Shown here one piece after another: positions 20,335-64,000 of a stretch of DNA of 64,000 nt. Source of the DNA: Amoebophrya sp. A120 (lineage: Eukaryota > Protista > Dinoflagellata). Numbering within the stretch: position 1 is the first letter of the stretch; every line of letters starts with the position of its first letter. Under the pieces are notes generated by a model. It did no database searches. It was given only the letters and a program-made list of their open reading frames with translations, and had not been told where the DNA came from. Made by a program: the position numbers and the translations under genes. Location: contig CAJINV010000017.1 of the NCBI GenBank assembly GCA_905178155.1, positions 550,722 through 614,721 on the forward strand, read 5' to 3'.

Positions 20335-22487
20335 ATGTTGGTCGCGCGAACAGCCACCGTGAGCAGTTCAGCCCGTTTGGGCAATCGTCTCGTTTCTTCC
20401 TGCTCAAGGGAACTTCCACGACAAGCGTCCGGGTTGGGTGCAGCTTTAGCAGAGCCAACTACATTGCGCTGTCAGTTATACTTTGGCAAAAATTCTGGTG
20501 CTGCCGAGACCTGCAGCAGTGCTTCGAGCAGCAGGCCATCAACCTCGTTGAACACGAGCATATTCACAAAAAATCCCCGGTCTGGTACAACACATAGCAG
20601 GAGATCTCTGGCAACCTTGACGGAAGTTGCGTCCTCTCAAGAACATGATCATGCAAGAAGAGCCACTGCAGAAGACGGAAAATCAAGAACTGCAACGCCT
20701 ACTACACCTGGTGCTGCATCATCGACATCAAGTAGTTTCAGTTCCTCGACGTCCTCCCAGAGTAGATCAACAGCCTCCTCCAACACAGCGGCACTGAACA
20801 AAAAGCTGGATGATCTGTTGGCAGAAGCACGCTATGAAATGTAAAAATGTCTGGGTCTGGGAACTTGTGATGCTGGGTAGCGTCTCATGATGAGGCTACA
20901 AATGCTGGCTCAGCATGACAAGTTTCTGAGCTTCTAGGTGTTGCCTATTCTGCATGACAGACTGCGCTTCTGCATCACAGAAAAACGCAGCTCTGGGGTA
21001 ACGTGCGTGACAGATTTAAGAGTCATGCCAGACAAGCATGACAAACATGAATTCTTCCAGACCCAGACATTTTTACAGTTGATACACGCACACACTTCGT
21101 GCATCAACGTTACGACGAGTGTCTGGAATCGAACCGAACGGTGATAAACCTGTACCGCGAAGAGCATCAAGCTGAGCTGCAGGAGGTAAAGCTACAGGGT
21201 GTAGTTGGAAATGCAACAGGATCCTCGTCCACCGCTAAAGACGCGACCTGGGAGCGCGCCGCCGCGGCGCACGTCAACAGCGCGTTTGTGTGCAAAATTT
21301 TGTGCAAGTTTGAGGAAGGGATGGCCCTGGTGCGAGGAGCGTTGCCTCTGTTCGAACAGCACTACAGCGAGTACAAACGGGAATTCGCTCAGGCGCACGA
21401 TTTGCTCGCGGAATTACTGCTGAACGCGTCACTGCACTACAACAAAGCTGATCCGCAGTCGATGTTGGAAGGACAAACCGGTAGTGCTAGTGCTACAGTA
21501 GAGGAACCTAGTAGTACTTCTGCGCGCGCAGGAGATGCTCTGCGCGAGGCGGAGAAGCTCGTCCTCAAGGCTTTGGAGATCAAAAGCGACTACCTCCCGT
21601 CCGAGCAGAACACGCTGGGAAGTCCCGAGCGCGCAACGAGCTACAACCTGCTCGGGCGGTGTTACGAGCTGCAGGGGGACTTGGGAAAGGCGATGGCAAA
21701 CTACTGCAAAGCGTTCGAAAGCAGTTACGATGGCAGAATGGTATTGAATAACGAGCAGGAGAACCAGAAAAACCAGACGAAGCAAAAGCCCCTCATTCAC
21801 CCCGTTGCGTGCGCGAGCTTGAGCAACTACGCGTCGTGTTTGCAGGAGCAGGGGAACTACGAGGCAGCGATGGGTGTGTACGAACGAATTCTGGAATTTT
21901 TGGAAATAAAGGCTGCCGCGGGCGGTGAGAAGGATGTAGTTGCAGCTGAAATTAGAACATCAGCTACCTCAGAGCAGGGAGGCGGCACTACTTCTACTAC
22001 ATCACAACTAATGAAGCAACAAGAAAAGCAGACGCACATGGAGGCGGAAACCCACCTTGCCCTGGGTGTGGCGGCTATGGGTGCGCGCATGAAGGACAAG
22101 AGCGCCTACCACCTGCAGGTGGCGCTTTCCTTGCACACCAACCTGTTTCCCTCCGGGCTCTCCGGCATGGAATCCCAGCCAGTGCAAAACATTTTGTCGC
22201 TGCTGATGCGGCTGAAGCAGGTGGAAAACACGAAGACGGATTTGGACCAGAAGCAGGAATGGATTGAGCAAGGGCACAAGCTTGTAGACGAGCTCTGCCG
22301 AAAGCAGCAAGTGACGTACGTGGAGTATGCGGAGAAAGAACGACGAGGAAAGAACTTGCTGAGTGTCAGCGGGGAAAGCCGGTATTTCGATCACGCGGGG
22401 CACGTAGGTCACGGACCCAGGGGAGATTCTGTTCGGCTTCGTGCAGACAATTACTTCCTGCCGTCGGAAGCAGAAACGGGCAGATGA
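20335..22487 (+). CDS. TPR-repeat protein with R/S-rich N-terminus (possible organellar transit peptide); one introner intron
   Basis: Exons 20335-20832 and 21090-22487 join as ...LLAEAR|THFVHQRY. TPR-like helices ATSYNLLGRCYELQGDLGKAMANY and ASLSNYASCLQEQGNYEAAMGVYERIL. Confidence 0.8.
20833..21084. mobile_element. Introner/MITE family A, 252 bp, TSD CACGC
   Basis: TIRs TATGAAATGTAAAAATGTCTGGGTCTGG ... CCAGACCCAGACATTTTTACAGTTGATA; CACGC on both sides; removal restores the frame. Confidence 0.92.
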
Positions 22488-23718
22488 CAGTGTTGTTGGG
22501 ATGATATAAATATTGTTATGTTGGAGGAGTATGGGGGTCGTGTGGCGCTTCTGGCACGATGACTCATTCATTGCATTGGACAACGTCCATGCATTCAGAA
22601 AATTTTCTTACCCACAATAACTTGATATCTACGTCATCAAGTGTTGTTGAGTCAAAGGCTGAATTTGATTTTTTTTTCATATAGTGTATGTGTTTTAAAT
22701 CAAAATCACGGTCAGAGGCTCTGCTTTTCCCAGTTCAAACTTCTTCGCTGTTTGTTCAAAGAAGCAAATTTTCAGGTTTGTGTCCTCATTGGTGCTGTCA
22801 CCGTTGTTTCGAGATCATCTACAACAGCTCTTTCGGATCACAGGGCTGCATGTTGAGCTGCCGAATTTAGTAATAATCCCACGGACCTGCTCTTTAAATT
22901 CGAAGTTTTTACACGGACTTGAAAAAATTTGTGAAGATCCAAAAAAAGAGTATTGGCTACCTGGCATGATTTCGGAACTCGTTTGGTCCTAATGTGAAGG
23001 TAGTGAAATGATGTTTGAGCTGTCTTTTGGACGATTACAAATCGCTTGTGATGCTTCAAGATCACCTTTTTGCTGTGCAAGATCAGCTTGAAATTATTTG
23101 AATTAAGAAGCATGCCATCATATATAAAAAAGTTGTTCAAAATTTTCCTAAAGCGTATAAGTGTCTTTCATGCGACGACATCAAAAATAAAACACACCGG
23201 AAATTAAATGTAAAACAGCACGGCGACATTGACATACATACGGGCTAGTGATGTCTACATAGAAGCCGCATCTTTAGAAAGGCCGAAAATCCAGACCTAG
23301 TTGTGAAGTTTGGGGTTCTGGTTTTCAAACATATTATCACTCCTCTGTGAAGATTCTCCCGTCCTTCTAAATTAAAATGAGTTCAGCAGCAGCAACCATG
23401 CCAAAATGATGCTACCATCAACCCGCAATATCAGTAGGGACATCGTGAAGCTGAAGTACAACTCCTGAAGAATTGGACTTTATCCCGGAGGGGGAGGACG
23501 CACACGGTTTTCTCCCGGTAGGAGCTCCAGCCGCGAACTCGAAGACGAGAAAAGTCCATACATCACTCAGCTCAACACGACCACCCAAGAACTTGTTCTC
23601 CAACTGGACCACAAGTTCCGCCTACACTTCTGCCAGCAGCACTGCGGAACAACAAGAGTGAGTCAACACAGAACAACTACAACCAGCGACCTTGAAAAAG
23701 AAATAATCAAACTCGAAG

Positions 23719-26700
23719 ATGTCGAATCCTTTCACCCCTGCGCACAGCAACATGGACGTGACTCCGGCCCATAGCATCAATATGGATGTCACGCCGGCGC
23801 ACAGCGCCCTCGCGGACGACGAACTCGAGTTCGTCGACGCCGACCGCAGCGATGTGCACATGGGGGACGAGGAAGAGTTGCAGTTCGTGGATAATCAGGA
23901 GGGCGAACAGGTACTAGAAGAAGATCCTCAACAGGGCGCGGAGCAGCGACAGCACGAGATGAATTTGGTGCAAAACGGCGTGATACCACCACCTTCGGGA
24001 GGTACTACTGGCGGAGATGACGCGGTCCTCGCCGACGAGGTACTACACCCTGCCCGGTCGCGGTCTCACAGTCGCAAAAAGCGGGAGAAGAAGCGGCTGG
24101 AGAAGCAAAACCAGCTGGATTTGCTCCTTCTGGAGCACGAAGCGCTGAGTTTAATCGGCGGTAGCGACGCTGAGGGGCTCACGACTCTGGCGCACCGGGT
24201 GACAAACAAGATCAGGTCTCTCGGGCATCTCGTGCAGGACGAAATCGAAATCCTGGTGCCCAAGACCACACAAGATAACGGGTACGGTGTTTATGTTTTT
24301 TTGATGAAGACGATTCTCTGACTGACGAGAGGACAACAGCGCGCTATGTATTATCCCTGCGACTTCATCTCATCTGGTCGTTTATATTTTTTCTTGCGCA
24401 CCGGCACCGCAAACAAGAAGTACTAGATGTATCTCTCTATTGATTCCCAATATTCGAAACTGAATTTTCCTTGCATGATCGCCAAAAGCAAAGTCTAAAA
24501 ATAACAACGCACAGCAAGCACCGGCGGATGCTGTTCAAGAACGTGCCCGCTTCCCAGCACGCGCTCGCGCTCTCCGAGATTTTGCCGCTGGTTTCCTACG
24601 CATTGCAGAAGAAGCGGGAAGATTCTGGGCGAGAGGAGTACGTGAGCATAAAGAGCAACAACGCGCCAGCCACCAGCAGCACCAGCGCGGCAGCACCTGA
24701 CACGACCGCAGCGGGAGGACCCGCCTCCAGTGCCGGCTCACTCCCGGGCGGCGGTGGTCTGAAAACGCCCGACAATGGGAGCATCGGCGGGGCGGGCGGT
24801 CTCAACTTTCAACAAGCAGGAGGATCTATTACAATGAAAAATGCCCCCACCCCCGAACTTGAAAGCATTTGTATTGCAAATCTTTCCAAATGAAACATTC
24901 GCCCTCTTGCGTGTATCAGCATCACAGAGTTCCGATCGTGAATAGCAAAAATGTGTATTGCAAAAGATCCCAGCAAGAGCGGTGCTTGTCATGCAAGCGA
25001 TGCGAAACACGACTAGAATCTGCATCAGAAAGATTCTTACTCCTTTCATGCATGACAAAAAGCTTTCATTTGGAAACTTCGCATCACAAATTGTTGCAAT
25101 TTCAGGGGTGGGGGGTATTTTTCACTGTGATAGGATCTTCGACATCTTTGCTGGTAAACGAAACGTATCAAATGTAAAAATGTCTGGGTCTGGAAGAATG
25201 CGCGATTTGTCATGCAGCTTTTCCATGACCCATGAGGCCTGGAATGCAGGACCTAGCATGACAGATTCTGCGCGATCTCTCTCATGCCTATTCTGCATGA
25301 GAAACTCCCTCCCGACTTGGTCAAAACTGGACGACTTTTGGTAATTATGCAACACAGATTTTTGCATGCTGCAGATTTAGCATGACAAGTTACATCCTTC
25401 CAGACCCAGACATTTTTACATTTGATAAAACGAGCACCTTTCCAATTCCAGCGAGAGGAGGCACAGCGACTAACCACTCAATAGGCTTCAACAGCAATAT
25501 GCCCGGAATAGATGGTCAACAGCCACCGCTTGACCAGTCCGGCCTCCAGAGCAACCCACCAATACAAGAGCAAAACGCGGGTGGCAGCTTCCGCGATGTT
25601 GATAATAGGATGTCAATGGAAAGAAGTCGGGAGCGAAGCCGCAATCGCCACAGCATGCCCCGACGAGGCTCGGGCGGCGATCTGCAGGAAGATTCGCACT
25701 CTGGAGCGGGGGGCGGCGAGGGCAAACCGCTGAAGGGCGACGGAGATAAACCTTACATCGGGTATATTCGTAACTGTAGGAAATAAATTCTAGAGGAAAA
25801 TCAAAGTTGAAGAGTTACCCACCAACTACTCCATTCAAAAAAATCAAAGTCGAAAGTAATTTTAGTATACTTACGGAATTTACTTGAACGAAAAAAAATT
25901 GCAATTGGAATTCAATATCCTTGGCTCTTTTTCAACATCACAGCAATTGGGAGCGCGGTAGGACTTTCGGCCTAGAGAAGGGCGAAATACAAAAAGTGTT
26001 GACGGTAACTGTCGACAAAATAGGGCTGCTTATCGGTCGAGGCGGGTCAAAAGTGAAAGAAATACAGGAGTCAACAGGTACGGCAAATACGGTCGTGATG
26101 ATTTGATTGTGAAATTGTTGTGGACAAGAAGAAGATATTATAGAAGATTTTTTTCTTCATACGTCATAAAAAATGCAATCTCAAAATTATCCCAGGCGCC
26201 GAGGTCGTGATCGAGCCGACGGACTACCGCACCGACCCCCCTTCCACGAAGGTGAGAGTGACCGGAGCCATCGACAAAGTCGAGAAGGCGGTTGGCATAC
26301 TAGAAGAAATTCTCGCCTGGGCAGCGGCACACCCCCGGGAGGAAGCCGGTATTGAAAAACTGCTACTGTTTGAACGTGGTAGAATAGTAGATTTTTTGTC
26401 GCACAGTTCTGTCTCTGTGCCTTTATTGCAGGAGCAACTTAGTATCGAGATCGACTCTGACACTGAGTTGTTGATTACTTGCAATTACGGCTGCATAAAT
26501 CTACTTTGACCTGCTTCCACTGACCCATAATTTTTGCCAGGTAAAAAAATGGAAGTGAATTTACACCACGTGCCGAAGCTCCTGCGTTTAAGCGCAGTGG
26601 AATACAACGATCAGCACCCGCTGTACCACATCGGCAAGATCTCCTCGAGCATGACCGGCGCCGAAAACTTGAAGGTGATCGAGGAAGAATCCGGCGCCGA

Positions 26701-28597
26701 GGTGGAAATCGACCAGACCACTGGGAACTTGGGGTACTATGTATGATGTTGACTACAGATCATGCATATAGTTGCACGTTTTGAATTGCTACTGCATGGC
26801 AAAGGCGAGAGGCTCGCGTCGCAGCAGCTTGCATGAAGACCATTAGATGGACAATCAGCAAACAGTGGCTTTTATTTTTGTTTTCAATTTTTCCACTATG
26901 TTGCCATCAGATACTCTACTATCCTGATTCGCGGGGACGAAAAATCAATGGCGGTTGCGGTGGATATTATCACGAAGGACTACGTGTTCAAGGGCGAAAA
27001 TTCCCACTTGTTTGTCGAGATGATGGCCGAGTGGATGTGCCACCCGTCGGTGTGGCAGAAGCACATGGCCGCCCGCGCCGCGGGCCTGTTTGTGCCGCCC
27101 CCGACGATCCTTCCCGGCCCCGCGCCCTTCGAGGGGCTGACCAACCCAAACGACAAGAAGGGGAAGAAGGGGAAATATTACAATGAAAAATACCCCCACC
27201 CCCGAACTTGAAAGCATTTGTATTGCAAACCTTTCCAAATGAAACATTCGCCCTCTTGCATGTATCAGCATCACAGATTTCCGATCGTGAATAGCAAAAA
27301 TTTGTATCGGATATTGATAAATATTCTTGAACTTTCGGACTCCCGCGCCCCCTTTGAATCTTCTCAAAAAAAACGAAGGGCGCGCCGGACATTCTTCTCA
27401 AGAGAAAAAGAGCGGGCGCGAGAAAGTTGAGGAATTATTAGCACGACCCACAGCATTTTTCGGATTCAACAAGGGGCCCGGGGACGCACTCCCATTTGTT
27501 TAGTAATATTTATCGACATCCGATTGCAAAAGATCCCAGCAAGAGCGGCGCTTGTCATGCAAGCGATGCGAAACACGACTAGAATCTGCATCAGAAAGAT
27601 TCATACTCCTTTCATGCATGACAAAAAGTTTTCATTTGGAAACTTCGCATCACAAATTTTGGCAACTTTGGGGGTGGGGGGTGCTTTTCATTGTAATAGG
27701 AAAAAGGGCAAGAAGGACGGGGACGCGAAGGGCAGGGGCAAGAAGGGGAAAGACAAGGACGGGAATCCGATCCCCCATGACAAAAATCCGTTCGGCGGCG
27801 ACCCCAGCAAGGGCCCCCCCGGGGGGCCCCACCACCCCTTCGGCGCCGACCCGTTCGGTAAGGGGCCCCCGCCCCACCCGGGGATGGGCGGCCCGCACCC
27901 CGGTATGGGCTTTCCGATGGACCCCCACTTGATGCACATGAAGGGCGCGGGCATGCCGCCGCACTTGCTGCACGCCGGATTTCCACCCGGAGCGCCGCCA
28001 GGAATGGATCCGATGATGATGGGTATTTTCGTTATTTCTCATTTTTTTCTTTTCAATAGCACAGTGCTCCTGCATGAAGATCAAGATGTCCGGATGTTGG
28101 GAAGTTCCATTCTTGCTCCGCACGCCCTGTCACAGGGCTTGTGGCACTACTGGTTGGTTCTTCCTCGCGACAACTGGAAAACACAAATTCCTTCTACAAA
28201 TTCAGGCAAACCCGGCATGGATAAGGGCAAGGGTTTCGGCATGCCCCCCTTCGGCGGGGATTTCGGCTTCGGAAAGGACCCGTTTGGCAAGGGCAAGGAC
28301 CTGTTTGGGAAGGGCAAGGACCCCTTCGGGAAGGGAAAGAAATTCGGCGGCGACCCCTTCAAGGGGGGTAAGCCCGACCCCTTCAAAGGTGGCGACCCCT
28401 TCAAAGGCGGCGCCCCCTTCCCCGGCGGACCCCCTCCGCCGCACTTTCCTCCCGGCGGCAAAATGGGTTTTGAGCATGGCTCCCCAAACAGCAGCCGACC
28501 CGGCATCGGCGAAGGCGGAACCCCTATCGGTGGCGGCATGCCACCACAGCAGTTTCCACCGCAAGGAGGAGGCCAGGCACCCATGATGATCGGGTAG
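23719..28597 (+). CDS. KH-domain RNA-binding protein with G/P/K/F-rich C-terminus; ~6 canonical and 3 introner introns
   Basis: KH signature VDKIGLLIGRGGSKVKEIQESTG-AEVVI; second KH-like repeat ENLKVIEEESGAEVEI; repeated KGK/DPFKG C-terminus. Confidence 0.85.
24827..25132. mobile_element. Introner/MITE family B, 306 bp, TSD GGATC
   Basis: TIRs TATTACAATGAAAAATGCCCCCACCCC ... GGGGTGGGGGGTATTTTTCACTGTGATA; removal gives QQAGGSSTSLL in frame. Confidence 0.92.
25166..25427. mobile_element. Introner/MITE family A, 262 bp, TSD AAACG
   Basis: Perfect ~31-bp TIR TATCAAATGTAAAAATGTCTGGGTCTGGAAG; removal gives LVNET|STFPIP in frame. Confidence 0.93.
27176..27698. mobile_element. Introner/MITE family B, 523 bp (contains a nested element), TSD GGAAA
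   Basis: Highly similar to 24827..25132 apart from a 217-bp insertion; removal gives KKGK|KGKKDG in frame. Confidence 0.92.
27308..27522. mobile_element. Nested MITE, 215 bp, 2-bp AT duplication
   Basis: TIRs CGGATATTGATAAATATT ... AATATTTATCGACATCCG. The empty site TGTATTGC is present in the paralogous copy at about 24954-24961. 215+2 equals the length difference between the two B copies. Confidence 0.88.
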
Positions 28598-29304: not shown

Positions 29305-30792
29305 ATGACGGAAGTGCATCGATCTGATGCGCCCAAAAACTGGTCCGTATGCTCTTCGAGTTTTCGAAGTTGTCGCGCATTTTCGTCTTCGTCAAGCTCA
29401 AGAACGATGACAGGTGTCAAGAACTTCGTGCAGGCTGCGAGTGCGTGGACGAGAAATCTTTACTCGTGTGAGATCAACCCTCGCCCACATGTCCGCCGAC
29501 ATGAAGGGCCGCCACCTCGAAGTCCTTGTGACAAAGCTCTGCTCACAAAAACGTCGACTACCCTGGCAGCAGTTGTGGCCTTCTTCACAAGTCGTTTCTT
29601 GAGTCCCTTTATTTTGACCTTTTTGCCTCTGGTACAACTAGTACAGCAAGCCACCACACCAGCGGCGGCGATCACCTACGCGGGAAAGCCGCACCAGCCG
29701 TACCCACACTGTTTGGAAAAGGACGTGGTGATTCGAAATGCCGGCCGAGCGCTGTTCCTCAACATGGGTGCGTTTGGGGCGATTGAGGGCTGTTACAACG
29801 ACGACTGCACGATGACGGACAAGTTTGCGGCACCGGATTTCGAGACCTGTATCAATATGTGCTACACAATTCCGGAGTGTACCTGGTGGTCGTTCGGGAC
29901 GGAAAAGTCGGATAACATGACAAAGTGCTGTAGGGGAATGTCAGGTTTGAAATCGTCAAAGTTGAAATGATTTGCAATGCTGCATGAAATCTTCGATACC
30001 AGGCCGGAGTCAGATTCCTAAGCGGCGCTGGACGACAAATTTTGGCAGGGACTAGATCCAGTCCTCTGTCATGCTGTTTGGCGGGCAATGGGGCTTCACT
30101 TCTCTTGTCGTGCCACTAAAGCAGCTGCATCTTCAACCCCAACAGGCTAGGCATACAATCAAATCGCCCTCAGTTGTTGCATGCTCTCCAATACAGGTAG
30201 ACTGTGCGGCGCTGCATCTTATTCTATTCATCATTTACTGGTGGCGCTTACGTATCTATCTTCATATATATAAGTGGTAGTACATTTTATGCATTGGCGG
30301 GCGTTTTCTGTGGCGTTTCCGTTTGGGTATTCTTTGGTGCACTTTATGCATTCCAAATCTTGTCAACTTTGTCGATTTCGATTTTGTCGCCTCCATATTT
30401 TGGATACGCGTGGCGGACGACGGACGGGAGGAGCTCGGTGAAGGGTCGGGCTTCGTTTCCGGGGCGAAAGTAGATTTTGGCTTTTCATCGTTTTTTTTTC
30501 ACCAGCGCTGCTGCAAAAAATACTTAAGCAAAAACATATTACACTATCGCAAACCATTTCTATTCAATCTATGATTGCGTCGATTTGTTCTCGTTCTGGT
30601 TCTCACGACCAGGTCTGCCTCCCGGAGACGGTGAAAGAATACCCGATGGGTAATGCAGGATGCTGGATCGACGGGTTTGACTACGACATGTGTTGTGACC
30701 CAAAATTCGGCTCCGCGGGCAACACGCAGTGCTGGGACGGTCACTTTTCGCACGAGCGCTGCTGCGTTTCCCCAGAGCAGATAAGGAGGTGA
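29305..30792 (+). CDS. PAN/Apple-domain, Cys-rich probable secreted or surface protein (3 exons, ~290 aa; start uncertain)
   Basis: Spliced sequence CINMCYTIPECTWWSF...KCWIR...GFVSGAK fits the Apple pattern, followed by CWIDGFDYDMCC...CWDGHFSHERCC. Exons 29305-29930, 30403-30469 and 30613-30792. Confidence 0.72.
29931..30397. mobile_element. Degenerate introner family C, 467 bp, imperfect TSD TGCTG/TTTTG
   Basis: Left end TAGGGGAATGTCAGGTTTGAAATCGTCAAAGTTGAAAT; right end TCAACTTTGTCGATTTCGATTTTGTCGCCTCCATA. Removing the element plus 5 nt completes the Apple domain. Confidence 0.8.
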
Positions 30793-32704: not shown

Positions 32705-35360
32705 ATGTTTCCACGTCAAGCCCGCCTGGGCTTGTCAGCTTTGTTACTTCTGGCGCCGGAGAAAACTGCTGCTCGCGAAGTGGTTGATGTCGGCACCGAT
32801 GGCCTAGCAACATCCCGAACGGATTGGATGGAGGACGGGTACGACGAGCACTCCCCTTCCGCCCCTGCTGCGGACGCCGAAGGACCGGGAGAAGAGAACA
32901 ATAGGCACCCGTCTTCAGCATCTTTAGCATCCTCGGCTTTTTCGCAAATGCACGGCATCCCAAACTTCTCGACGCCGGCGGATCCCGTTTCCAACACGCG
33001 ACCCGTTTGGGAGGACAAACTGCGATCAGCTCGCTTCGAGGGCGAATGGATGGCGTACGTTGTCAGCACCACCTCGATGGAGGAGCAGCTACTGGGAAGT
33101 GTTACTGTTGACGAGCTGTGGAAACTGCAGGTACTGATAAGAATTCTCCTTGGAGAAGGAAAATGTAGTTAAATTGGAAAACTTCTCATGAACGATTCAG
33201 ACATCAGAACCTCAAAAAAAATTCTATATTATAAATACGTATATATCTGTATCACACGGCTAAACGCTTCACTTTTAAAAACCTCACTTGCTAAAAAAAA
33301 AATTTTTTTTAGTGAGGTTTGACGCTGTTGCTTACAGCATCGGCAGCTACGTGCCGACGGCGGCGATTGCGGCGCCTGCACCTTCTGGATCAGTGGAAGG
33401 ACGACTGAGCCTTGCTTTGGGGGGCAGAGATTGGCTTTTGACTAGTGAAGACGCCACGACTTATAATTCTGAGAGCGAAAGTTCCACAGAGTCTTCATTT
33501 GAGTAAGATGAAAGCAAAAAGTCAACTTTTGTGAACGAAAAAGTGAAAAAGTCGACGACTTGAAAGTAAAATGAATCAAGCGTCATTTTTTTGAGCGTAG
33601 CACCGGCCGAAGAATTCGCAAAAATCCAAAAACTGGCTCCGGGGGCAGTTGATTCATTTTCGCCGTTTTTGGCCACCGTAGAATCGGCGCGAGCTCTCAA
33701 AAGCGAGCACTTTTGAAAATCGTCGAAATGGTGCATCAAAGCGATGCTTTTGCGAAAAGTGCTATGGTTTTGAGGCATTTCTGGAAAGAACATAGGTGGG
33801 ATTGTCATTTGATTCACCTCTCAAAACTGGCCTTTTTTGGTGGCCCGAAAGTGACTCCTTTTTCGAGGCCTTTTGGGTTGGAGCTTAGGCGTGGCTGACA
33901 AACGATTCACCTTCTCGAGGCAGCTGCTTTGCTTTCAGAGATCCAAAAAAACACCAAAAAAAAATTTTTTTTAATGAGTGAAGTTTTTAAGCGTGAAGCG
34001 TTTAGCCTTGTGATAATCTGTTGTAGTTTCGTGGCCAGTCAAGATGTCTGATCGATGCAGCCCTCCTGCTTTATGTACTTCTTGCACGAGAAAGCGTACG
34101 TAGAAACAGAAATAAACTTCTATGCCGCTCAGATACTGAAGCGGAAGTTCCAGCTCCAATTTCCCGGCCTCCTGCTCAATTTCGGCGCGTACCGGTTGGG
34201 CTTGAACGTTTTGAACTTCGATACCGACAACAACTACCGGCTTAGCAACGAGGAGTTCGCGAGGTTTTTTGAGCACCAATTGCAATTGTACCGCGCGCAG
34301 CTGCTGATTTCGTCCTCACCGTCTAACACCACCGAGATGCTGAACACATCAGCCTTGGCAAAAATAAACAACACTAGCATGACGGACGACGCGGCGTTTT
34401 GTTTCTCGCAGTTTGACACGGACCAAATACCGGTTGCCGAGCTTGTCGCCGCGGCCTGTTTGCAACAGTTCCCGGCTGACCCTACGGCAGCAAAGATCAC
34501 CAACGCCACAGCAGGCGACCCGTCGTCGACATTGGAGACGGGGATCAGCAGAACAAAGTGGTCGCTTTCGGACTACAACCCCTTTTCGACGTGCTCCTTT
34601 CCAAGCGTCGCGAGCTGTGGCGAAAATTTGTGTGGTATGAACGGACAAAATACGAGAAAAATCCTGTAATGGCATATAGCTATAGCACTACGAGTACGAG
34701 AATGACACGGGAGGGGACGTCGAGAATGACGCGAGAAGGGTTCTCGCGGGGCTTTGCATCATCATGAAACCCCTTCTTGCCATTCTCCCGAAAAGTAATG
34801 CTTTCACGAGAATGGGACGGCATCGGCATCGGATTTCACGCCAAAACTTAGCCCCTGCGAGAATGATCATTCCCACCCACCCTTTTTCGAGCCCCCCGTG
34901 TCCTTTTCGTAGCGTTGTATGCTATTACAGGAGTTTTTCCCTATTTCGTCCGTTCATATTGTGTGGCATTCGCGAATGCGTGGGGTCTCGTGTGCTCGGC
35001 GCGGCCGAATGGCAGCGCCATAACGAAGAGGTGGATCGCGAAAACGCCCGACGAAAAAAGGAGGAGGAGCGCGATGAGCGCTTCCGAGAGGAAACAAGGA
35101 GGAATGAAATCGGAAGGATTGCCCGGGAGAAAGACAGCGAAAAACGAGAACGGATGAAGAAGGCGTACATCAACCGGTATGGAGAACCACAACCACGGGA
35201 AGAACCACATTGGGATGTTGTGCGAGAAGTCGCCCGAAACGGAAAAGAGCAAAACCCGCAGCAAAGGCGAACTATGCAGGCTTTGAACGTTTTCAGAAAC
35301 CACGAGCAAAGCCAAAACGGGCTGTGGCCATTTTCAAGAGACACCGAGACCGAGAAATAA
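32705..35360 (+). CDS. Hypothetical protein with signal-peptide-like N-terminus, an EF-hand-like loop and a charged C-terminus (3 exons, ~464 aa)
   Basis: Exons 32705-33130, 34061-34635 and 34967-35360 sum to 1395 nt; loop FDTDNNYRLSNEEF. Confidence 0.68.
33250..34015. mobile_element. 766-bp TIR element, TSD ATCTG, inside canonical intron 33131..34060
   Basis: ~60-bp imperfect TIR TATCACACGGCTAAACGCTTCAC ... GTGAAGCGTTTAGCCTTGTGATA; ATCTG on both sides. Confidence 0.88.
34636..34958. mobile_element. Introner family G, 323 bp, 8-bp TSD TTGTGTGG
   Basis: TIRs TATGAACGGACAAAATACGAGAAAAATCCTGTAAT ... ATTACAGGAGTTTTTCCCTATTTCGTCCGTTCATA; removal gives ENLCG|IRECVG in frame. Confidence 0.9.
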
Positions 35361-36170: not shown

Positions 36171-39100
36171 ATGTGCTCCTTCTGGTTGACCACACTTCTG
36201 ATCTCTCTCCAGGCCCAACTGGACGAGATCAACCACCACGCGGTCACGCGTGGCCCGGACCTCACGGTTGGGCTGGAATACCAGGGGTTCACGTTTGTAC
36301 ACAATCTGCTGGCGATAACCACCGCTGCAGGGCAGCGGGGAACCGCTTCATCTTCACCGACGACATCTCGTCTTGCTGAAACAGAAAGTGGAAGTAGTAC
36401 CAGCAGCGGCAACATCGCAGATGGAACAAGTGGAACAGAACAACCACCACCACCACCAGTTTCCTCCTACCCGCAAGGCGTAAAGCAGTTGCTTCGCCGG
36501 GCCAACCGCGCGGCCAACAGCATCGAGCCGGAGTTTGCGGACGCCAACGGCCAGCCGATCTTTTACGAGGATGCGGTCCTGCTATTCAACGGCGAGATCT
36601 ATAACTACCGTGAACTGCTCTACGAACACGAGTTGCCGAATCCGGGCGCCACGGAGGGACAGGTGCTGGTACAGTTGTACCGGAAACTGGGACCAGACTT
36701 CGTCAAGCAGCTTGACGGCGAATTCGCGTTGGCAATCGTGGATTTTCGCCTCCTACAGACGGTCTTCGCCACCGACGTGTTCGGCACGAAGCCCCTGTGG
36801 TTTGCGGTCGGCAGGGGCGCGACGAGAACGGGAGGGGCGAAAGCGGGCGAAAGTGGAGAAAGAAAAAGTGCCGGGGGAGAGACGAGAACGAGGAGCAGGA
36901 CCACTCTTAGTACAAGACCATCGATCCATATCGCCACCTACCGCAGTGTGTTGCTGAGGTTGATCGAGCAGCGGAGAGCGGACGCAGTAGAGTCCCACTC
37001 CTCGTCACAGGAAATTGAAGATGCTAAAAGTTCTGGCGCTGGTACTTCTGGAAGTGGCACGAGGACATCAGGCGAGGGTGGTAAGGAAGATGCAGATTCA
37101 CCGGATGATGAACTACATGGTGATGGTCTTGGTCAAGTGGTGGATTTCCAAGAGTCCGATATCCAGCACGCTGAGCCGAATCGCGTAGTCACCTGTCCGT
37201 TCACCGCGACGGCGGACTCGTTTCAAACCCTCTGCACCTTCTCCACGGTGAAGGAGTTCGACTTGCGGCAGCACAAGTCCGACTCCAGCGACTTTGATGC
37301 CGCCTTCGAGCGCGCGGTCTACAAACGCGTGCACGGCCCACCGGGGTCCCGGTTCATTCGGGTCTTCATGGGGCTTTCCACGGGCTACGATTCGGGGGCG
37401 ATCCACCTGGCGCTGGGAAAAATGCAGCGGTTGGAAGGCGTCACAAAAGACACAGGAAATGCAAATGACTTCGGGAAACAAGTAAAGATCAAATCTACAA
37501 AGGATGTGGATGCGGCGCAAACGAAGTCTTCTAGCGCTGGCGGCACTGCAGCTTCCAGTCGAGCAAGCAAAGAGGAAAGAGAGTCTTCATCTCCCTCCAT
37601 CTCAACTAATTCTGCCGGCATTGCAGCTACGTCCTCCGTTCTCGCCGGCGGCAAAATCTTCCCGAACGGGAAGCAACGGGAACGACTGCAAGGCGACGAC
37701 TTTGTGGCCTACGTGATCGTCGACGCCGCCTTCCGCGAAACGCTGAAGCAGCGGATTGCCTACAACAATGTGAACGTGAAGCTGATTTCTAAAACGTGGC
37801 AGAATTTCAAGAAGGAGCTGAATATCCTGCGCAAAAGTGTAATAAGTCGCACGCGTAATATTTATACGTATTAAATTTAAATGCCAGTCTTGCATGACAG
37901 ATTTGGTCGCTCTTACCTGAATCGGCACGACAGGTTTCACTTTTTCTCTATTTGGAAAAAAAAGACATGATACGTATTGGTATTACGATTTAATAGCTAT
38001 TGTGCACTGCATACTGACAACGCTGCAGCAAAAGACCGAGGAATACTTCTACGATGGCGGCAACTGGGCGGGCAAATCGCTCCAACAGGACGCGTCTGCC
38101 GCGCCGGGGATATCCCTGCTGACCAAACTCGCGGCGGAGGACGGCCGCAGAGTCTACTTGTCCGGCAGCGGAGCCGACGAAATCATTTCCGACTACGGGT
38201 TCAATGGCACAAAGTTTTTTCCCCACAGCTCGTTCGGCGGGCGGTTTCCGCCGGACCTGTCCAGCGTGTTCCCCTGGGCCAGCTTTTTCCTGGGCACGAT
38301 GCGCGACTACTTGATGAAGGACGAGATCATCGCCGGGTTTCACGGCATCGAGGGCCGGTACCCCTTTCTGGACTTCGAAGTGGTGCAAGAATTTCTGTGG
38401 CTCCAGGACTCCGTCAAAAACTCGCAGTACAAGAGCGCACTCGCCCGGTACCTGCAAAAACACGCGTACCCGATCGCCTTTGGCAAGCAGGGGTTCGGCG
38501 CCAGCACAGATTTGAAAGTCTACGACCCGCCGAATGGTCAAAATCTTGTTCATCCCGGAGCTGGTGCCGTCGTGGAGCTAGAGCGTGTGACTGCAGCCGA
38601 CGAGCGCGAGCGCGACACAGCTGCAGGAGAAAGTACATCAAGTAGCTCTACTTCTGCAAATATTCAAGCTGACGACGCGCCAACTGGCACTGGTTCTACT
38701 GCTGAGATGCTTTTAGACCCGGCGACCACTTCCGCCACGGCTACCAAGCCACCCACCGGCGACGGTGCTGTCACCTCCACGTTCCTTCAGCCCCCGCCGC
38801 AGTGCGGCGAGAACATGTACTTCGTGGCGCTCCGGAGCCGGTTGACCGCAAGGGTACTGGATGGTGAGGAATTTGGCTGTGCCAATGAGAATATCAAGCG
38901 CGACCGGGAAAACCTTGTTTACATTTTGTGGCACGACTTGCAGAACATGGTCACGAACCTGTTCGGGGAAAAACGCTTCAAGCAGGAATGCGCGATCGGG
39001 TTTTTCACGGCCCGGCTCCTGAAAACCGTAAGTTTAGTGGACAAGAACATGCTGGGCTCGTTGGGAGAACAACATGATCGATCTTCTCCCACGCCGCACA

Positions 39101-46323: not shown

Positions 46324-49300
46324 ATGTTATCCTTCTGGCCCTCCTTCGTTGGTGGCAGTGCGGAGGAGGAGGAAGACCCTACCAATGGCGCAGACACAAA
46401 CTACCCCATCGGCCCGCAGCACTCCGTCACGTCCAATGCGAGTTTTGGTCGACAAAAGTCTGTTTTTAACCCGAAACAAGCGGTCAACACGATCGCGCGA
46501 GGGACGTATTTCATTAGAAACAAGTTTCTGGCGAAGACAGCCAGTATGAAGAACGAAACTGCAACGGAACGCGATACGACCCGGAATATGATCACCAGCA
46601 TCTTCTTCAGACCCTGCTGAATTGGTACATGTTGCATAACACGGAAAATGTCCTAATGTGGTTTAGCGACATTTTCTCGTAGTCGTAGTGTGCGTGGAGG
46701 TGCATACTGATACTGAACCGCAATGAAGTTGTCCACCAATAATAATTCTCGAGGAAGAGGGTGATTTTGCACGGGATACGCGAAATACCAGAAGGGTATT
46801 GCATGGAAGACTACGATTGCGAGTTCATCCTCACAACCTTGCCAGAAGTCTCTCGACTGTATCACGCTGAGTATCTACCGCTGGGATGCGACTGCAGTAT
46901 ATCTAACTTCTACTTTTTTATTTGCTGCAGATATGGTGCCGATCGACACACGTATTGCATGCAAAAATTCCATATTGTAAAAGTGGTTTCCGCCGCCCCT
47001 CCACCCGCTGCAATATTAATTCTGACTCACTTACTTGCACAGGCCTCCTGAAAGTCTACCCGGATGCGGTTCCCCGGGGAATGGACGTGTACTCGCTTTT
47101 GTCCACCATGTACAACAGTAAGTTTTCGTCTTTCCTGCCCCAATTCGGCTGCGACTTCCTTGACGGCGACGACTGCTCCTACGCCATCATTCTGGAGCCG
47201 GCGTATCAAATGCAAAAGTGTCTGGGTCTGGAAGACTGCGAGACTTGTCATGGTTGTCTGGCATGACCAAAAAGTTTGTGATGCGTGTCCAAGAAGAGGC
47301 CCTCCTGCCTGTCATGCAAAAACGCAGTTTGTCATGCGAAAAACGCAACGCAAAGAAGCGCAGACATTTCTCATGCTTGCCTGTGCATTACAGGGCATCC
47401 ACTATTCCCAACGCAGCATTACAAGTTTCCAGACCCAGACATTTTTACATTTTATACGGCCTACCCGCAGTTTATCTCCGTGCCGAATTTCATCAAGGAT
47501 TTTGCAAAACTGAAGCACAACCACGAACTGAAAAACCGGCTGCTGGCGCGGATCTTCGGCAAGTTGTTTTCCTTCTTGATCCTCACCCACGAAGAGAATT
47601 GCATGGGGTGGTTTGACTACGTGAACACAATGTACTTGGAAGCGGGGTACGAAAACTTGAAGTTTTTTCACCTGGGATTCACCCAGTATCGAATCGAAAT
47701 TTGAAGCGACGGTGCACGACTTGCTAGAATCCACATGAAGTAGAAATGCTGACGATGCCTGAGTCGTCGAGGAAGACCCAACTGTATAGCAGCTTCCTTA
47801 CGTAGGTGCAGCTTTTGCCTTGCGCTGATTACTTGCGCTTTGCATTTTTCTGCACGTGTGTGCCGGCTGCAATTTCTTTTTCAATGCATACATCCGATTC
47901 CAACAAGACGAGAATGCAGAAGATCGCGGCCGACTTCATGCAGTGTGCGGATTTGCTAGACAAGATCCTTCTTTTGGACGAAAACCCCGAGAAAATCCCC
48001 GCCGGCCACCCCTTCGCGAAGAAGAAAAAGCTCTTCGGAAGGAGCAACAGTCCGAAAATCGGTCATGGCGGTGCAGCAGCAGCAGGCGGAGCAAATTTTC
48101 ATGCCGGTATGAATTCAGCGGCGTCGCCAGGAGGCAAAGGAAACAAACCAGCTAATCGCGGCGGCGTGATGAAGCGGGACCAGACGCGGCAATTTGACTT
48201 TGCCGGCTTGGAGGATGAGACTCAACATGGCGCAGGAGATTTGAATTTTGGAAACGATCCGAATAACGCGGATCAAATCCAGAATGATTTTGGCTTTCAG
48301 CAACAGGAGCAGAACAACCTGAGCTCCATGATCATCTCGCAGGAGGAAGCGGATGACGGAAACTACGGGGAGAACTTTTACAAAAATCAGCCGCTAGAAC
48401 ATCAACTACCCTCAGATGATGGCGTCGGGAACTACCCATACGGAATGGGTTACGGTGCTGGGGCCAGTTTCGCTGGACAACTTCAAGGGTTTGGAGAACA
48501 GGACCAAACGACGTACGCGTACGGCGCATCAAGTGGTTATAACTACGCGAGCACTTCTGGAGCAAACAATGACTACGGGCATCAACCAGCAGAAGATAAT
48601 TCCAACAGCAACTACTTTTACAACAACCAGTACAACAGCAGCAACTTTTTCCAGACCGAAGGGCAGCACAATGAGGAGCCGGGTTCGGAGCAGGCGTCTT
48701 TGAACGACGTGAACGTAACGGCTGGCTGTATCGAGGTGGAAGAGGAGGAAGCAGAATTGGACTACCCGCACGACAACCTGTTGCAGCACAAATCCTTGAT
48801 GGACTTCCGGAAGACGTTGCATTTCATGACGAAGATTGAAGAAGCGGTGAACCACCCGTTTCTGATCGAGTACGAAGCGAAGAACCGTATCGATTTGCTG
48901 CACAAGCTGTTCAAACGGAACGGGAAGGACAACCTCCATCTGTCGCAAAATCTCTGTGACTCGTCCGTGATTATGGGCGCATTGCAACGGTTGGAGAAAG
49001 CGGAGGAGGCGAAAAACAGTACTAGCGGCCCTGCAGGTGCTTCTGGGGGGAGAAAAAGTACGGGTCTAGCTGCACTAGCCGGGGGGAGAAGCAGCACTGC
49101 CAGTAGTATCAACGCCGCTGCAGGAGCGCTGCAATCACAATCGGTTTTGTCGGTCTATTCTAAAACGAAGTCGGCACTCGGAGCCGGCGTGGGTCGGCAG
49201 TCAACTGTTGGAAAAGTGAAGAGTATGAAAAGTTCGAACCTGAAGCAAATTGAGGAAGAACCCGGAGCGATGACGCGGCGGCAAACGCGCACCACCAGTC

Positions 49301-51276: not shown

Positions 51277-51927
51277 ATGCGCGGTCGAACTCGACCCCCC
51301 AATTTCTTGTACACGGGACGCCACGGCTATGGAAGCGTCAGGTTTGAAATCGTCAGAGTTGAAATAGTTTGTCATGCACAAAGTGCAGCCCTCAAGGTGC
51401 CTGCCTTGCAGAGTATGCAAGTGAGGTATATTGTAAGCCGGTTGTGGGGTAGAAACTGAGCTGCTGAAATAGCATGACAGAACGCGTCTTTCTTACCCAA
51501 ACAGCATGACAGACTGGATTGCGGCTCTGCCCAAATTGGTCATGCGCCACTTGGAAACTGGGTCACAACTTTCATCCATTTTATGCATGACAAAGTACTT
51601 CAATTTTGTCGATTTCAACTCTGAGACATCCATAACGGCTCGGCCGAAGACTCGCGAATGCAATCGTATAATTTTGCGGCGCAAGGATGCGGACGGGAAA
51701 TTAGAGCCGCCTTCGATTATGATGATGAAGTTGTTACGCTCTTCAGGATGTTTAATGATCGCCGCCCCGCCGGCAGAGGAAACATGTTGAGGGGCTCAAT
51801 CCGAGGAACACTCTCCAACAACCATGAAAATAGGTTGTGTCCGGAGTGTAGGTTGAACTTGTTTTACCTGAAGAGCTCAATCACGTCTGGACATGAGTTT
51901 GAAGCTGTCCGCCATGGACAGTCGTAA
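51277..51927 (+). CDS. Possible small gene or gene relic (~112 aa) interrupted by a family C element
   Basis: Removing 51328..51639 joins MRGRTRPPNFLYTGRHG to SAEDSRMQSYNF in frame; no recognisable domain. Confidence 0.25.
51328..51634. mobile_element. Family C element, 307 bp, TSD ACGGC; inverted relative to 43522..43829
   Basis: TIRs TATGGAAGCGTCAGGTTTGAAATCGTCAGAGTTGAAATA ... TACTTCAATTTTGTCGATTTCAACTCTGAGACATCCATA; ACGGC on both sides. Confidence 0.9.
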
Positions 51928-56266: not shown

Positions 56267-56491
56267 TATGGAGTTTTGAACCGTTGTATTCTCGACTGTT
56301 TTGTGATTTGTCATGCAAAATTACCTCGACTATCCGCACACCAAGCTGCTTCGGATCGTAAATACTTAGACGGTTAAACAGGCAGAGAATTTTTGCCAAA
56401 TCTGTCATGCGTGACGTGGAAGGCTCTTTCTATCACTTGCGTCATTACAAATCATGCAACAGTCGAGAATGTAACATTTGCGAATACCATA
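56267..56491. mobile_element. Degenerate TAT...ATA TIR element, 225 bp
   Basis: Inverted core ATTCTCGACTGTT...TGATTTGT.ATG at both ends; termini TATGG/CCATA; flanks GACTA/GATGA (3 of 5 match). Confidence 0.65.
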
Positions 56492-58562: not shown

Positions 58563-58683
58563 AATGCAAATAGGATCCTGATGGCCGTGTGCCGAGACTC
58601 TTGGGGATTACCTGGCCTATTCGGCTATAGGTTCTCCCCGAGGCGTCTCCCGCGAAATACTCACCCCAAGTCGCGCAAGCGCC

Positions 58684-61600: not shown

Positions 61601-61884
61601 GGCCCGTCTGGTTCAAGGGATTCCAGTACAACGACTCATCCGAAGGTCGCAGAGCACGATTCGACACCGCGCTCGGAAAATTCGCGCAACACCTGATCCC
61701 TCTGCAGGCCAGCAAGCACGCGAATAATCTCCCCCCGGTATCTGTCGCGATACCGTTGAACATCGGAACGGGCTACAACGGTGGAAAAGTTGACGAGTAT
61801 GCACGCATTCTCGACCGTTTCGTGCGCGCAACACGCCCGCACGGAATCATCACCACTTTTTATCTGCCAGCCAAAAAGCACTGA
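58684..61884 (+). CDS. Pol-like polyprotein: RT, RNase H, degenerate methyltransferase-like region, macrodomain-like C-terminus
   Basis: RT motifs KLRLVTDW, GLDWADCF, PFGIKPAP, YVDD (59809-59820) and WLGLLID. RNase H motifs HGDAS..WG, INVKE, YTDN and NPVADVLSR. Downstream VEAF...WWFPP and SVAIPLNIGTGYNGG. Confidence 0.88.
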   Translation: MQPSERFAVPQSSHASRSRSSGAVQKRTPPRNSTRKRPAPPSSESGSRSSSSSSDSSSISGSSASPPLAKSSSNRSKSDIVRHQQKRRIIPGSRFRSKNRAPIPGVHSGQTEEEKSLGLCPHPEFSFQDYVNAGCPTTSDEIADFVSSRAGPDDHWRPLEDKAMIEGNSLNLEQCIRWGVPPEVILEWFGGYDFDITDPDLKITRQDNYSGAYDHPHDFTSEVYRFFHDKKLLIYDAARNDQPHPDNLMIAPATVLIQKWGTKLRLVTDWSARGTMLNQALFPPPVDYSDVHKLLWDMQPGAWITGLDWADCFAHWAISPARRRFLGVQTPLTGKFGVHLFTPFGIKPAPGKNDANIKVKINLGLRSGVKAASYDYVDDLRCLALENQLCQVTANRELKKMFYFYSALGAKLHTKAGKYIEATRSCPWLGLLIDTLLMRVFIEPERLETYIIELSEFIEQAQKALDSGSEACKAKELAAIIGKMESVKIVVHNGPLHLLQDVLKHSKVYKRWQTDSKFNPHVKIPAPAIKQLRWWLSILKSNPYAKIFSNRPANHNGEKCSCFLWRVEVLDAGPQFLRSLPADLFVVIHGDASSRRNNWGSTISGVSEKFQGEYPDKFKNKDINVKESYALLATLRAANTKGIHLSDKLIIYYTDNMTARKVANKGSYNKSPELTEISLDVREEVIKYGNELVGAKIDGEANPVADVLSRFDAELSSFFDPYVERRFNARSWGSICSKFPGMTVEAFTAGAGDELTRLQQQYCEKIPPFHHHLEWCDKKSWWFPPITIIFPTLRFVSKLVASHPLEARPRIAICAPVMGDRFSRTLAPLFLTMTFKKGSQCFETHGGTKITAEDTFCVYSTVPLSLWSAPRSCISITPQVERLRKSTKWKAALGLLDQPVSGGFGTGSEDFFVHICPVAPVETPKGVAADIYAAFPHASRYKEPVENKPFGDFEIIGRVVNIYSMFKKGPASGPVWFKGFQYNDSSEGRRARFDTALGKFAQHLIPLQASKHANNLPPVSVAIPLNIGTGYNGGKVDEYARILDRFVRATRPHGIITTFYLPAKKH

Positions 61885-62028: not shown

Positions 62029-62719
62029 CCTGTCTCTCGCGCCTCGACAATCCGCGAAAGCGGTGCGTTGGCTCCGAGTCTCTCGTTCTCGGTGTTCGGT
62101 TTCAGGGCGAGCTCGACGCGTCGGCTCTTGGGCAACATAAACACCACAATCTTTAAGATCGAATAAAATTATGGATTTGAAGCAGCGCGCAGTGGTGCGT
62201 ATGAAGTCCAATTTTAAGAAGTGAATTAGATTGTGGTGTTTCTGTTTGAGTGTTCGTTCGTGTTCGCACCGGGGTCTGGTCCACGCATCCGGTATATAAA
62301 TCACGTGACCACAATATTCGTATTCTAATCTATTCGCGATCGCTATTCCTATTCCTATTCTAGTCTTATTCGATTATTCCTACTCTTATTCTACTCCCGG
62401 TACTCTATTCTTNTACTCTATTCTTCTTTTTTCCCGCCCTCCCGCACCTCGGCTTGGGCACCTATTCGGCGCAAGCCGCTTTTCGTTGTTTATCTTTCGT
62501 TTCTTCATGTTTCAACGCAATCTAATTCATCGATCCGTCACGTCCCCTCGCCCTGCCCGTTGGTGCTAGTGACACTCACCTGTCTCTCGCGCCTCGACAA
62601 TCCGCGAAAGCGGTGCGTTGGCTCCGAGTCTCTCGTTCTCGGTGTTCGGTTTCAGGGCGAGCTCGACGCGTCGGCTCTTGGGCAACATAAACACCACAAT
62701 CTTTAAGATCGAATAAAAT
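62029..62719 (+). repeat. Two identical 141-bp direct repeats (62029..62169 and 62579..62719) flanking a 409-bp spacer with a degenerate (TATTCY)n tract
   Basis: Identical by eye from CCTGTCTCTCGC to GAATAAAAT; offset 550 bp. Confidence 0.92.
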
Positions 62720-64000
62720 GAGGCCTTTCGCTGTTTCAACGCCGTGAACATCCGCGGCAGGCCGTACTTGCGACTTGCGGAGCTGCACACCGCACTGCAA
62801 GCCGTGTCCGCCAACCCGGTTTTCGATCAACTCCGGTCGAAGAGTCACAGCTTCTTCCTATGGATTGCAAAAATGTCTTGCAACTTGTCATGCTGTCTTT
62901 GGATTCCAAAAAAATCTGTATTGCGTGACCAGCAACAGGACTCCAGTTTGTGTTACGCGGAGAGGGCATTTCTCATGCGGAATAGGCATCAGCAAGCCCT
63001 GTAAAAATCTGTGATGCTAGATCATGCATTACATGCGTCGTGGATCATACGAAAGATGCATCACAAATTCCGGAATCTTCCAGACCCAGACTACATTTTT
63101 ACACTCGATACTTCCCCTTGCTGTGCAAGGCGTTTCTGAACGCGTCCGCTAACCGGGACCAACAGTGCTCCGCAGCGGACTTCGAATCCTTGTTGGAGTC
63201 CTTGTCCCTGACCCAGTTGGACGCCACGAACATTTTCCGGGCGTTCGTGCAAAACGACTTTGCGAGTCTGGACGTGTGGAGCTTCATCAACTTGATCCTC
63301 GGAGCTTTGTGTCCGTCGTTAATCCTGGAGGAGTTTCTGAACAACGATTTGTTGTGTGAAACCCTGCAGAATTTAGCCACCTGGTACTACAAACCGTTCA
63401 ACTTTGAGGAGTTTTTGAATATGTGCCAAAACTGTGGGATTTACGACAAGCGCGCGGTCCAGCTTTGCTTTTTGTTTCTGGACGTGGACAACAGTGAGCA
63501 GGTGTTTGCGCGAGAAATTCTCACCGCGTTCCACATCAAGCGGCAGCTGGCGCCGGGCGGCTCGGAAAAGAGCAGTAGTAGCAGGAAAAGACAGGGTACT
63601 TGCCGACAGTTGAAGGAAGTTGTTTTTTCTTATTTGAATGACAGAAAATCAGGCAGCACTATACATAGGAAGTTTTCGAACCTCGTTGTGTGCAAAGAAT
63701 GCGAAGTCCGGTAGTTCAAACTGTGCAGCTCTGAATAACTGCATTAAATAAACCTGCTCAGGTCAAACCAACCGCGCACGGCAGATGATTGCCGAGTCGC
63801 TAGGCAAACAATTTGCCGGGTGTTTTGCCAAGGCGGATCTGCTGAAACGGGTGGTGAAAGCGCCGTGGTCTGCTTCGGAGCAGGAAGCGGTGCAGGGCGG
63901 TTTCAAGACGCTTAAACGAATCCAGACCGGAATTCCCGTACCAAAACCGAAGAGAAAGGACGAGGACGAAGACGCCCCCCCGCCCAAACCCGGGTTCCGG
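62720..64000 (+). CDS. EF-hand-containing protein, 5'-incomplete, runs off the window
   Basis: Frame EAFRCFNAVNIRG...SHSFF|PLLCKAF after introner removal; EF loop FLDVDNSEQVFARE; GT-AG intron 63596..63761. Confidence 0.68.
62859..63110. mobile_element. Introner family A, 252 bp, TSD CTTCC, decayed left TIR
   Basis: Right end CTTCCAGACCCAGACTACATTTTTACACTCGATA; left end TATGGATTGCAAAAATGTCT; inverted relative of 25166..25427; removal restores the frame. Confidence 0.85.

Follow-up and report, generated by a model that had tools for sequence, protein, structure and literature searches.

How are transposon-derived elements taken out of a message when they interrupt codons and carry no conventional splice sites? 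This question is raised by a 64,000-nucleotide stretch of DNA (here, the window) from the dinoflagellate Amoebophrya sp. A120 (contig CAJINV010000017.1, forward-strand positions 550,722 to 614,721), for which a preliminary description made from the sequence had reported 14 elements with terminal inverted repeats (TIRs) in coding sequence. We are highly confident that these elements are introners of the kind published for A120 and that they are removed at the RNA level. With moderate confidence, we further propose that removal is the work of a U2-type spliceosome that has relaxed its demands on the terminal bases of the intron and is helped by the paired ends of the element.

The elements themselves are already known. 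Exon 42204-42914 of the gene considered below matches a protein labelled Amoebophrya sp. A120 with 100% identity (and an A25 protein with 54%), and the motif TAT-N7-AAA begins 11 of the 14 elements exactly; on these grounds, the elements are A120-type introners, from the published strain or one indistinguishable from it. According to Farhat et al. (2021; PMC7789003), A120 introners are about 240 nt long, exist in tens of thousands of copies, have inverted repeats that consist of TAT, seven variable bases, and at least three A residues, have direct repeats of 3 to 5 nt (with a 5-bp example in the legend to Fig. S19), and are removed with RNA-seq support. The window elements are the same in kind, as evidenced by inverted repeats, direct repeats, TAT-N7-AAA, repetition, and removal without GT-AG; the introner precedent invoked in the preliminary description thus concerns the same organism and the same element class, down to the TAT start. 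A120 introners have also been ascribed already to diverse TIR transposons (PMC12130899). What matters here is the route of removal, an open question for a genome in which approximately 65% of introns are non-canonical (PMC7789003). The same source leaves the exact intron border and the removal mechanism open and reports no cognate autonomous transposase in A120, and our literature search, which did not extend to subscription papers, gave none among the papers listed that resolves how Amoebophrya introners are removed.

Evidence for removal from transcripts comes from one gene and the six introners within it, as follows.

41157..45585, + strand: host gene with a 918-amino-acid (aa) spliced product, six introners, and one GT-AG intron (44008-44190)
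41576..41784: introner; target-site duplication (TSD) ACCGT; absent from transcript contig
41951..42202: family A introner; TSD GGACA; absent from transcript contig
42916..43173: family A introner in the opposite orientation to 41951; TSD CTGCC; junction 42910|43174 read directly
43522..43829: family B introner; TSD CCGGA; absent from transcript contig
44599..44751: introner; TSD CGAGT; missing from transcript contigs in each of two samples
44787..45065: introner; TSD GCTGG; missing from transcript contigs in each of two samples; 30-nt exon between it and 44599

Four of 12 listed sequencing runs (X1, X3, X7, and X10) were aligned to window positions 40500-57500, and their read evidence on removal covers these 6 of the 14 elements. 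A 3442-nt contig from X1 aligns in five pieces (40823-41570, 42203-42910, 43174-43516, 44190-44593, and 45066-45931), and the offsets between them equal three short exons exactly if the six elements are each lost with one TSD copy and the GT-AG intron is spliced out. Run X3, from another sample of the same study, has the same 30-nt offset across the elements at 44599 and 44787. The element and one TSD copy are therefore missing at all six sites spanned by transcript contigs, which is the junction that the preliminary description had expected of transcripts, and none of the six has a GT-AG register, as its claim that GT and AG are dispensable implies. Moreover, the copies at 41951 and 42916 belong to one family, lie in opposite orientations, and are both gone from a single transcript contig, which supports the earlier idea of a signal carried by the element ends.

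DNA-like run X7 behaves differently. It covers all 30 bins, and at each of the seven elements between 41576 and 47204 it continues from exon into element (depth, 43 to 48), with contigs that extend 24 to 50 nt into the elements at flank depth. The empty sites that had been suggested as a check on DNA excision are absent among the X7 joints listed, for one run of unstated life stage; a further 625 joints lie beyond the listing, and rare empty sites may exist. Because DNA-like contigs keep the elements and transcript contigs lack them, the evidence favours splicing at the RNA level over DNA excision, the two routes between which the preliminary description had left the choice. Three points weigh against this conclusion: junction 42910|43174 is the only one read directly, the others following from record offsets; X1 and X3 are contigs of one study that were classed as RNA by the tool's guess; and X7 may be the source of the assembly itself. 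X1 and X3 do behave as RNA, in that the contig skips the GT-AG intron and depth falls to zero in intergenic bins.

Precise DNA excision in the transcribing life stage, comparable to that of ciliate internal eliminated sequences, would likewise be expected to lose the element with one direct repeat, and it might escape notice in a life stage other than that of X7 or as rare variants, which contigs drop. Nevertheless, we regard it as very improbable. Filled sites are present at flank depth in X7 and also in a second, independent assembly (see below), and both TSD copies, or else a footprint, normally stay behind after cut-and-paste excision. Also, residue evidence discussed below suggests that the first TSD bases of the mRNA come from the upstream copy, as a position-specific cut would predict.

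The spliced 918-aa product aligns with its A25 orthologue (P0002, for which a Pfam search found no family) and is free of indels at all six junctions, in keeping with the proposal that such insertions into exons are nearly harmless. The public A120 protein model P0001 runs into the element at 44599 and stops at 745 aa, whereas the product is 918 aa long by the transcript contig and by the A25 orthologue; introners can thus truncate published A120 gene models. Contigs in X1 and X3 that match elements were rejected as proof of element transcription, because slight DNA carry-over over many copies would mimic it. Run X10, which consists of raw reads and carries the same species label, yielded 90 reads; almost all fall on a single inverted repeat flanked by foreign sequence, none falls on an exon, and the run is uninformative on removal. 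About 85 RNA reads of this run match only 41950-41982, which points to a family A element in the RNA of an organism without the window exons, at one locus.

Across the whole window, all 14 starts reported earlier proved to be real elements; they are not the full set. When the window was scanned for TA..TA pairs whose ends match at 16 or more of 25 positions and whose direct repeat measures 5 bp or longer, 14 distinct pairs emerged, namely 12 of the original 14 plus those at 33250 and 51328, compared with 2, 1, and 2 pairs in three shuffles even when the repeat was relaxed to 3 bp. At least four further elements exist (33250-34015, 37823-38013, 51328-51634, and 56267-56491), and the 18 together make up 8.7% of the window. 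Three of the four (33250, 51328, and 56267) are not in a confident coding frame, so insertion is not restricted to exons. Among the original 14, the ends are as first described (ATA in all, TAT starts in 13, and TAG in that at 29931), 15 to 25 of 25 end bases are complementary, and, of the twelve perfect TSDs, that of 34636 has 8 bp and the other eleven have 5 bp, with two degenerate 5-bp TSDs remaining (29931 and 47204). The elements beyond the host gene are as follows.

20833..21084, in a + strand gene: family A introner; TSD CACGC; flank phase fits
24827..25132: family C introner; TSD GGATC; joined open frame only
25166..25427: family A introner; TSD AAACG; joined open frame only
27176..27698: family C introner with an internal insertion of about 215 nt; TSD GGAAA; flank phase fits
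29931..30397: old introner with TAG start and ends like those of 43522; degenerate TSD TGCTG/TTTTG; flank phase needs element plus 5 nt
33250..34015: TAT..ATA element lacking the octamer described below; TSD ATCTG; not in a confident coding frame
34636..34958: TAT..ATA element lacking the octamer; 8-bp TSD TTGTGTGG; not confidently coding
37823..38013: degenerate introner between two long + strand frames; TSD CTGAA/CTGAC; phase fits
47204..47456: family A introner; TSD CGGCG/CGGCC, a silent difference; flank phase fits; outside the span of the listed transcript pieces
51328..51634: family B element; TSD ACGGC; outside confident coding sequence
56267..56491: degenerate element; TSD GACTA/GATGA; outside confident coding sequence
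62859..63110: introner with family A interior and eroded 5' repeat; TSD CTTCC; flank phase fits

These elements are short and non-coding, with TIRs, a TSD, and many copies, and so have the features of miniature inverted-repeat transposable elements (MITEs), in agreement with the transposon origin first proposed. Family A alone has six copies within the window, and contig depth summed over element bins reaches about 160,000, compared with about 45 on exons, a figure that is a sum and not a copy number. Their density is very uneven: six lie in one 4.4-kb gene, and the first 20 kb (1-20800) contains no intact TAT..ATA element, only two weak candidates at 13247-13425 and 14995-15724. The element at 27176 is a copy of the 24827 family in which some 215 extra bases (27308-27522) contain an inverted repeat of their own (27318-27440); one element may be nested within another here. 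Near the element at 51328, a family B end stands alone at about 52200-52259.

Removal of an element with one TSD copy had been said to restore the reading frame in every case. It does so at the six host-gene sites, as judged by transcript contigs and the A25 orthologue, and at 20833, 27176, 29931, 47204, and 62859, where the codon phase of both flanks was scored independently. For 24827 and 25166, the evidence is a joined frame only, and the claim fails to extend to 34636, which is not confidently coding. For instance, loss of 20833 turns frames of 170 and 478 aa into one of 632 aa, and loss of both 24827 and 25166 gives a frame of 254 aa. Removal of 29931 without any additional bases was rejected, since its flank phase needs element plus 5 nt; annotated protein P0003 was rejected as a span across 62859, since it starts downstream of that element.

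A second genome extends the phase analysis. A search with the end pattern yielded 152 loci in metagenome contigs, all of one assembly (in 18 of 64 parts scanned), a set biased toward family A by the query. An exon at one locus, L014, has an A25 protein as its closest named match (62%), and 14 of 17 window elements have a relative in the loci at 76 to 97% identity. The loci hold 247 distinct TAT..ATA elements, of which 193 have a perfect 5-bp TSD and 26 have one with 4/5 matches. Usable flanks were available for 191 elements and confident coding phase on each side, scored independently, for 65; at 61 of these, 5 (mod 3) bases must be retained, compared with one third expected by chance. The outcome was similar at looser (66/72) and stricter (55/57) thresholds, and a second pass that included the window elements gave 68/74 in element-plus-5 phase. 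This precise removal of element plus one TSD copy accords with the transcript contigs.

Elements with degenerate TSDs bear on what sets the outcome. All 11 confidently coding elements with 3/5 or 4/5 TSD matches keep the element-plus-5 phase, so the data are explained just as well by a cut at a fixed distance from the ends of the element, and the earlier definition of these introns by their TSD becomes doubtful. A spliceosomal cut that slides freely within the TSD, with the TSD rather than the distance from TAT setting the outcome, is in our judgment improbable. At a perfect TSD, six registers give the same mRNA, which hides the cut; Farhat et al. describe the sites as variable in Fig. 3 (PMC7789003), and one register at locus L063 would use a TAG acceptor. 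Nevertheless, the 11 degenerate TSDs all behave as a fixed distance predicts; TSDs of 4, 6, or 7 bp were seen at none of the confidently coding elements, although there were almost none to test.

The elements also share an anatomy that the preliminary description had missed in calling its seven families unrelated. Seven is a fair count, but the families have in common an end logo, TAT-S-N6-AAA, with which the TAT-N7-AAA start and the logo of the 247 metagenome elements agree, and an internal octamer, TGT[CGA]ATGC, mirror-placed near both element ends. This octamer occurs 48 times in 17 window elements, compared with 1.0 in shuffled sequence and 13 occurrences in the remaining 58.5 kb, and is present in 13 of the original 14 elements and 240 of 247 in the metagenome loci. 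The octamers look like subterminal binding sites of one transposase; no paper describing them was among the matches listed (the best 10 of 104, with figures and subscription papers outside the search), which include a single match on Amoebophrya, PMC6482013, with one occurrence. Conservation at the two ends is symmetric (TAT in 156/157 and ATA in 155/157), and family A copies lie with and against the host gene in a ratio of 24:19 in the metagenome loci and 3:3 in the window. Most window elements have ends that are predicted to pair, with end-to-end folding of young elements at z -6.5 (41951) and z -3.7; the hairpin of 62859 is weak (z -1.5). Two copies of ordinary families, L059:1829-2108 and L138:74-328, have direct repeats of 8 and 7 bp, respectively, and not 5 bp. 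The former belongs to the 44787 family, which weakens an 8-bp TSD, such as that of 34636, as a mark of another transposase.

Where, then, does the cut fall? Conventional signals give little guidance. Among the 14 elements, registers across the TSD yield GA-AG only for 24827, 27176, and 41951, just as first reported, and GT-AG or GC-AG for none, so that U2-type GT/GC-AG ends are absent. Some G[TCA]-AG pair is available in any register at 18 of 123 coding sites with a perfect TSD, and in these TSDs G is not enriched at position 1 or 5, nor is AG at positions 3-4. The TSD starts at a third codon position in 62 of the 123 (p 0.0003), sites that the register proposed next would turn into phase-0 introns.

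Mismatched TSDs provide sequence-based hints. At L063, use of the downstream TSD copy would put a stop in frame, and the upstream copy thus looks exonic at position 1. At L056, a homologue has M, which matches the upstream copy only (position 1), the M of the query being the tool's reading of an initial GTG; at position 5 the homologue has H, for which R from the downstream copy fits slightly better than P from the upstream copy. At L014, F stands at position 3 in the two nearest homologues and is encoded by the upstream copy only. At 29931, the upstream copy keeps a cysteine in what may be the ending of an apple domain. A structure search with L027 did not extend as far as the junction. Together, the mismatched TSDs lend some support to a cut after TSD base 3 or 4, and they suggest introns of the form NT...NN, cut one base before TAT and four bases after ATA. 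In Table S4 of Farhat et al. (PMC7789003), the nine top non-canonical classes of A120 introns all start with NT and eight end with AN, and NT starts correspond to a cut one base upstream of TAT. Likewise, A at TSD position 3, the -2 base of the proposed register, is found 51 times compared with 36.8 expected (p 0.002 before correction for 20 cells).

We propose that these observations fit together in the following way. A trans-acting cut-and-paste transposase, probably binding the octamers, would insert an element in either orientation and duplicate 5 bp. In the pre-mRNA, the inverted ends would pair and bring the exon ends together. The 5' cut would then fall one base before TAT, so that the T of TAT would stand in for the U that is invariant at +2 in GU, and the 3' cut would lie four bases after ATA; the U2-type spliceosome would keep the +2 U and dispense with the terminal G bases. 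Because the removed stretch would equal the element plus 5 nt, the message that existed before insertion would be rebuilt at any target sequence. Nearly all spliceosomal proteins are present in A120, together with the U2, U4, U5, and U6 small nuclear RNAs (snRNAs) (PMC7789003).

Several observations count against this spliceosomal reading. In the same genome, U1 snRNA was not detected (PMC7789003). Spliceosomal selection might be expected to leave a gain of terminal G or AG, and none is seen: G at the would-be +1 position occurs 36 times (39 expected) and AG at the would-be acceptor 13 times (12 expected). The ends of 29931 and 37823 are predicted to be unpaired (near zero), and their phase fits all the same, so end pairing may not be required. 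Four sites inform the register, and one of these is weak; near the junction, the L014 product exceeds its homologues by one residue; and the aligner may have produced the NT bias in Table S4 as an artefact. A mismatch polarity test was not significant (24 versus 12, p 0.065), the A:T asymmetry at position 3 fades at stricter thresholds (p 0.03, 0.09, and 0.29), and codon scores of the mismatched TSD copies separate upstream from downstream at no position, which cautions against over-reading the register.

Some of these points would suit a separate, non-spliceosomal RNA system, in which a structure-guided endonuclease and a ligase read the TAT..ATA stem, and perhaps the octamer, and cut at fixed distances. 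Such a system would require no terminal dinucleotide, consistent with the scarcity of G[TCA]-AG registers; the equal conservation of the 5' and 3' ends, removal in both orientations, the predicted pairing of most ends, and the undetected U1 snRNA would suit it too. There is also a parallel in euglenid nonconventional introns, for which a system of this kind is suspected and which leave as circles (PMC11282704). We consider this possible but unlikely. The register hints give T at +2 and a slight A excess at -2, as in GU..AG; the eroded-stem elements at 29931, 37823, and 62859 still fit the phase; and transposition alone could explain both the end symmetry and the octamers. A bolder form of the idea, which we hold to be about as unlikely, is a second splicing system that would recognise the transposon's own stem and octamer at the RNA level, whatever the orientation or target, cut at a fixed offset, and ligate the exons. 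If it exists, it would amount to a host-wide, RNA-level licence for one transposon superfamily to enter exons.

Non-canonical introns of Fritillaria borealis are likewise MITE-derived, genome-wide, and non-GT-AG, with TIRs and TSDs, and the U2 spliceosome was shown to be necessary for their removal (PMC11282704; bioRxiv 10.1101/2025.08.15.670264), which provides a precedent for spliceosomal removal here. They differ in having fixed AG-AN ends, a TAC target, and a conserved U1, whereas the target in A120 is free. Euglenid nonconventional introns resemble the window elements in their paired ends, TSD-like repeats, lack of GT-AG, and machinery that is not known (PMC12501133; PMC11282704). However, they carry the signature 5'-N3CDG...CH'GN5-6|R, which by inspection is absent from the element end logo, are excised as circles, and are not long-TIR families with 5-bp TSDs. 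Introners of Micromonas, Aureococcus, and Symbiodiniaceae/Polarella are also TIR/TSD DNA elements that become introns and leave the mRNA unchanged (PMC9860276; PMC11282704). Those introners carry or co-opt GY/GA and AG sites, in contrast to A120, where the TSDs have no such enrichment and co-option of a splice site from a constrained TSD is not observed. Other Amoebophrya strains use GT-AG introns (PMC12005148).

As to the transposase, Ginger DNA transposons are TIR elements too, and TDD-4/5 make 5-bp TSDs, but Ginger ends read TGTNR and its TSDs are mostly 4 bp (PMC2836005), unlike the TAT ends and 5-bp TSDs of the window elements. A120 family 38 contains TIR introners with integrase-like open reading frames (PMC12130899), and these are a lead to a candidate source of the enzyme.

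Four of our observations were not found in print: the shared octamer, removal in either orientation, the absence of TSD selection for GT/AG, and a cut register from mismatched TSDs. The available text of PMC7789003 mentions none of the first three and no fixed register; its Figs. S19 to S25 may show some of this. The analysis thus supplies a predicted register, a candidate shared motif, and a second genome with the same families. If the machinery is identified, an intron that is portable, works in either orientation and at any target, and leaves no scar would be a useful tool.

The window has other features as well. On the + strand, a 1100-codon open frame (58582-61881) is probably a retroelement: residues 200-760 resemble reverse-transcriptase/RNase H clusters in Atlas (score 0.97-0.98), and searches gave no Pfam family and no useful solved structure. 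It is followed by a 150-bp direct repeat (62029-62178 and 62579-62728), directly upstream of the exon with the element at 62859. A 604-codon open frame (1-1812, + strand) runs off the window start and has no Pfam family; we take it to resemble the tail of a protein from a retroelement without long terminal repeats. A Pfam search of seven proteins returned no family. Over 49436-57500, X7 depth rises from about 45-55 to about 110 with more base differences, and the RNA-like runs have almost no depth, which suggests a collapsed duplication or second copy. Lastly, five imperfect 40-nt AT-rich repeats lie between two long frames at 7759-8124.

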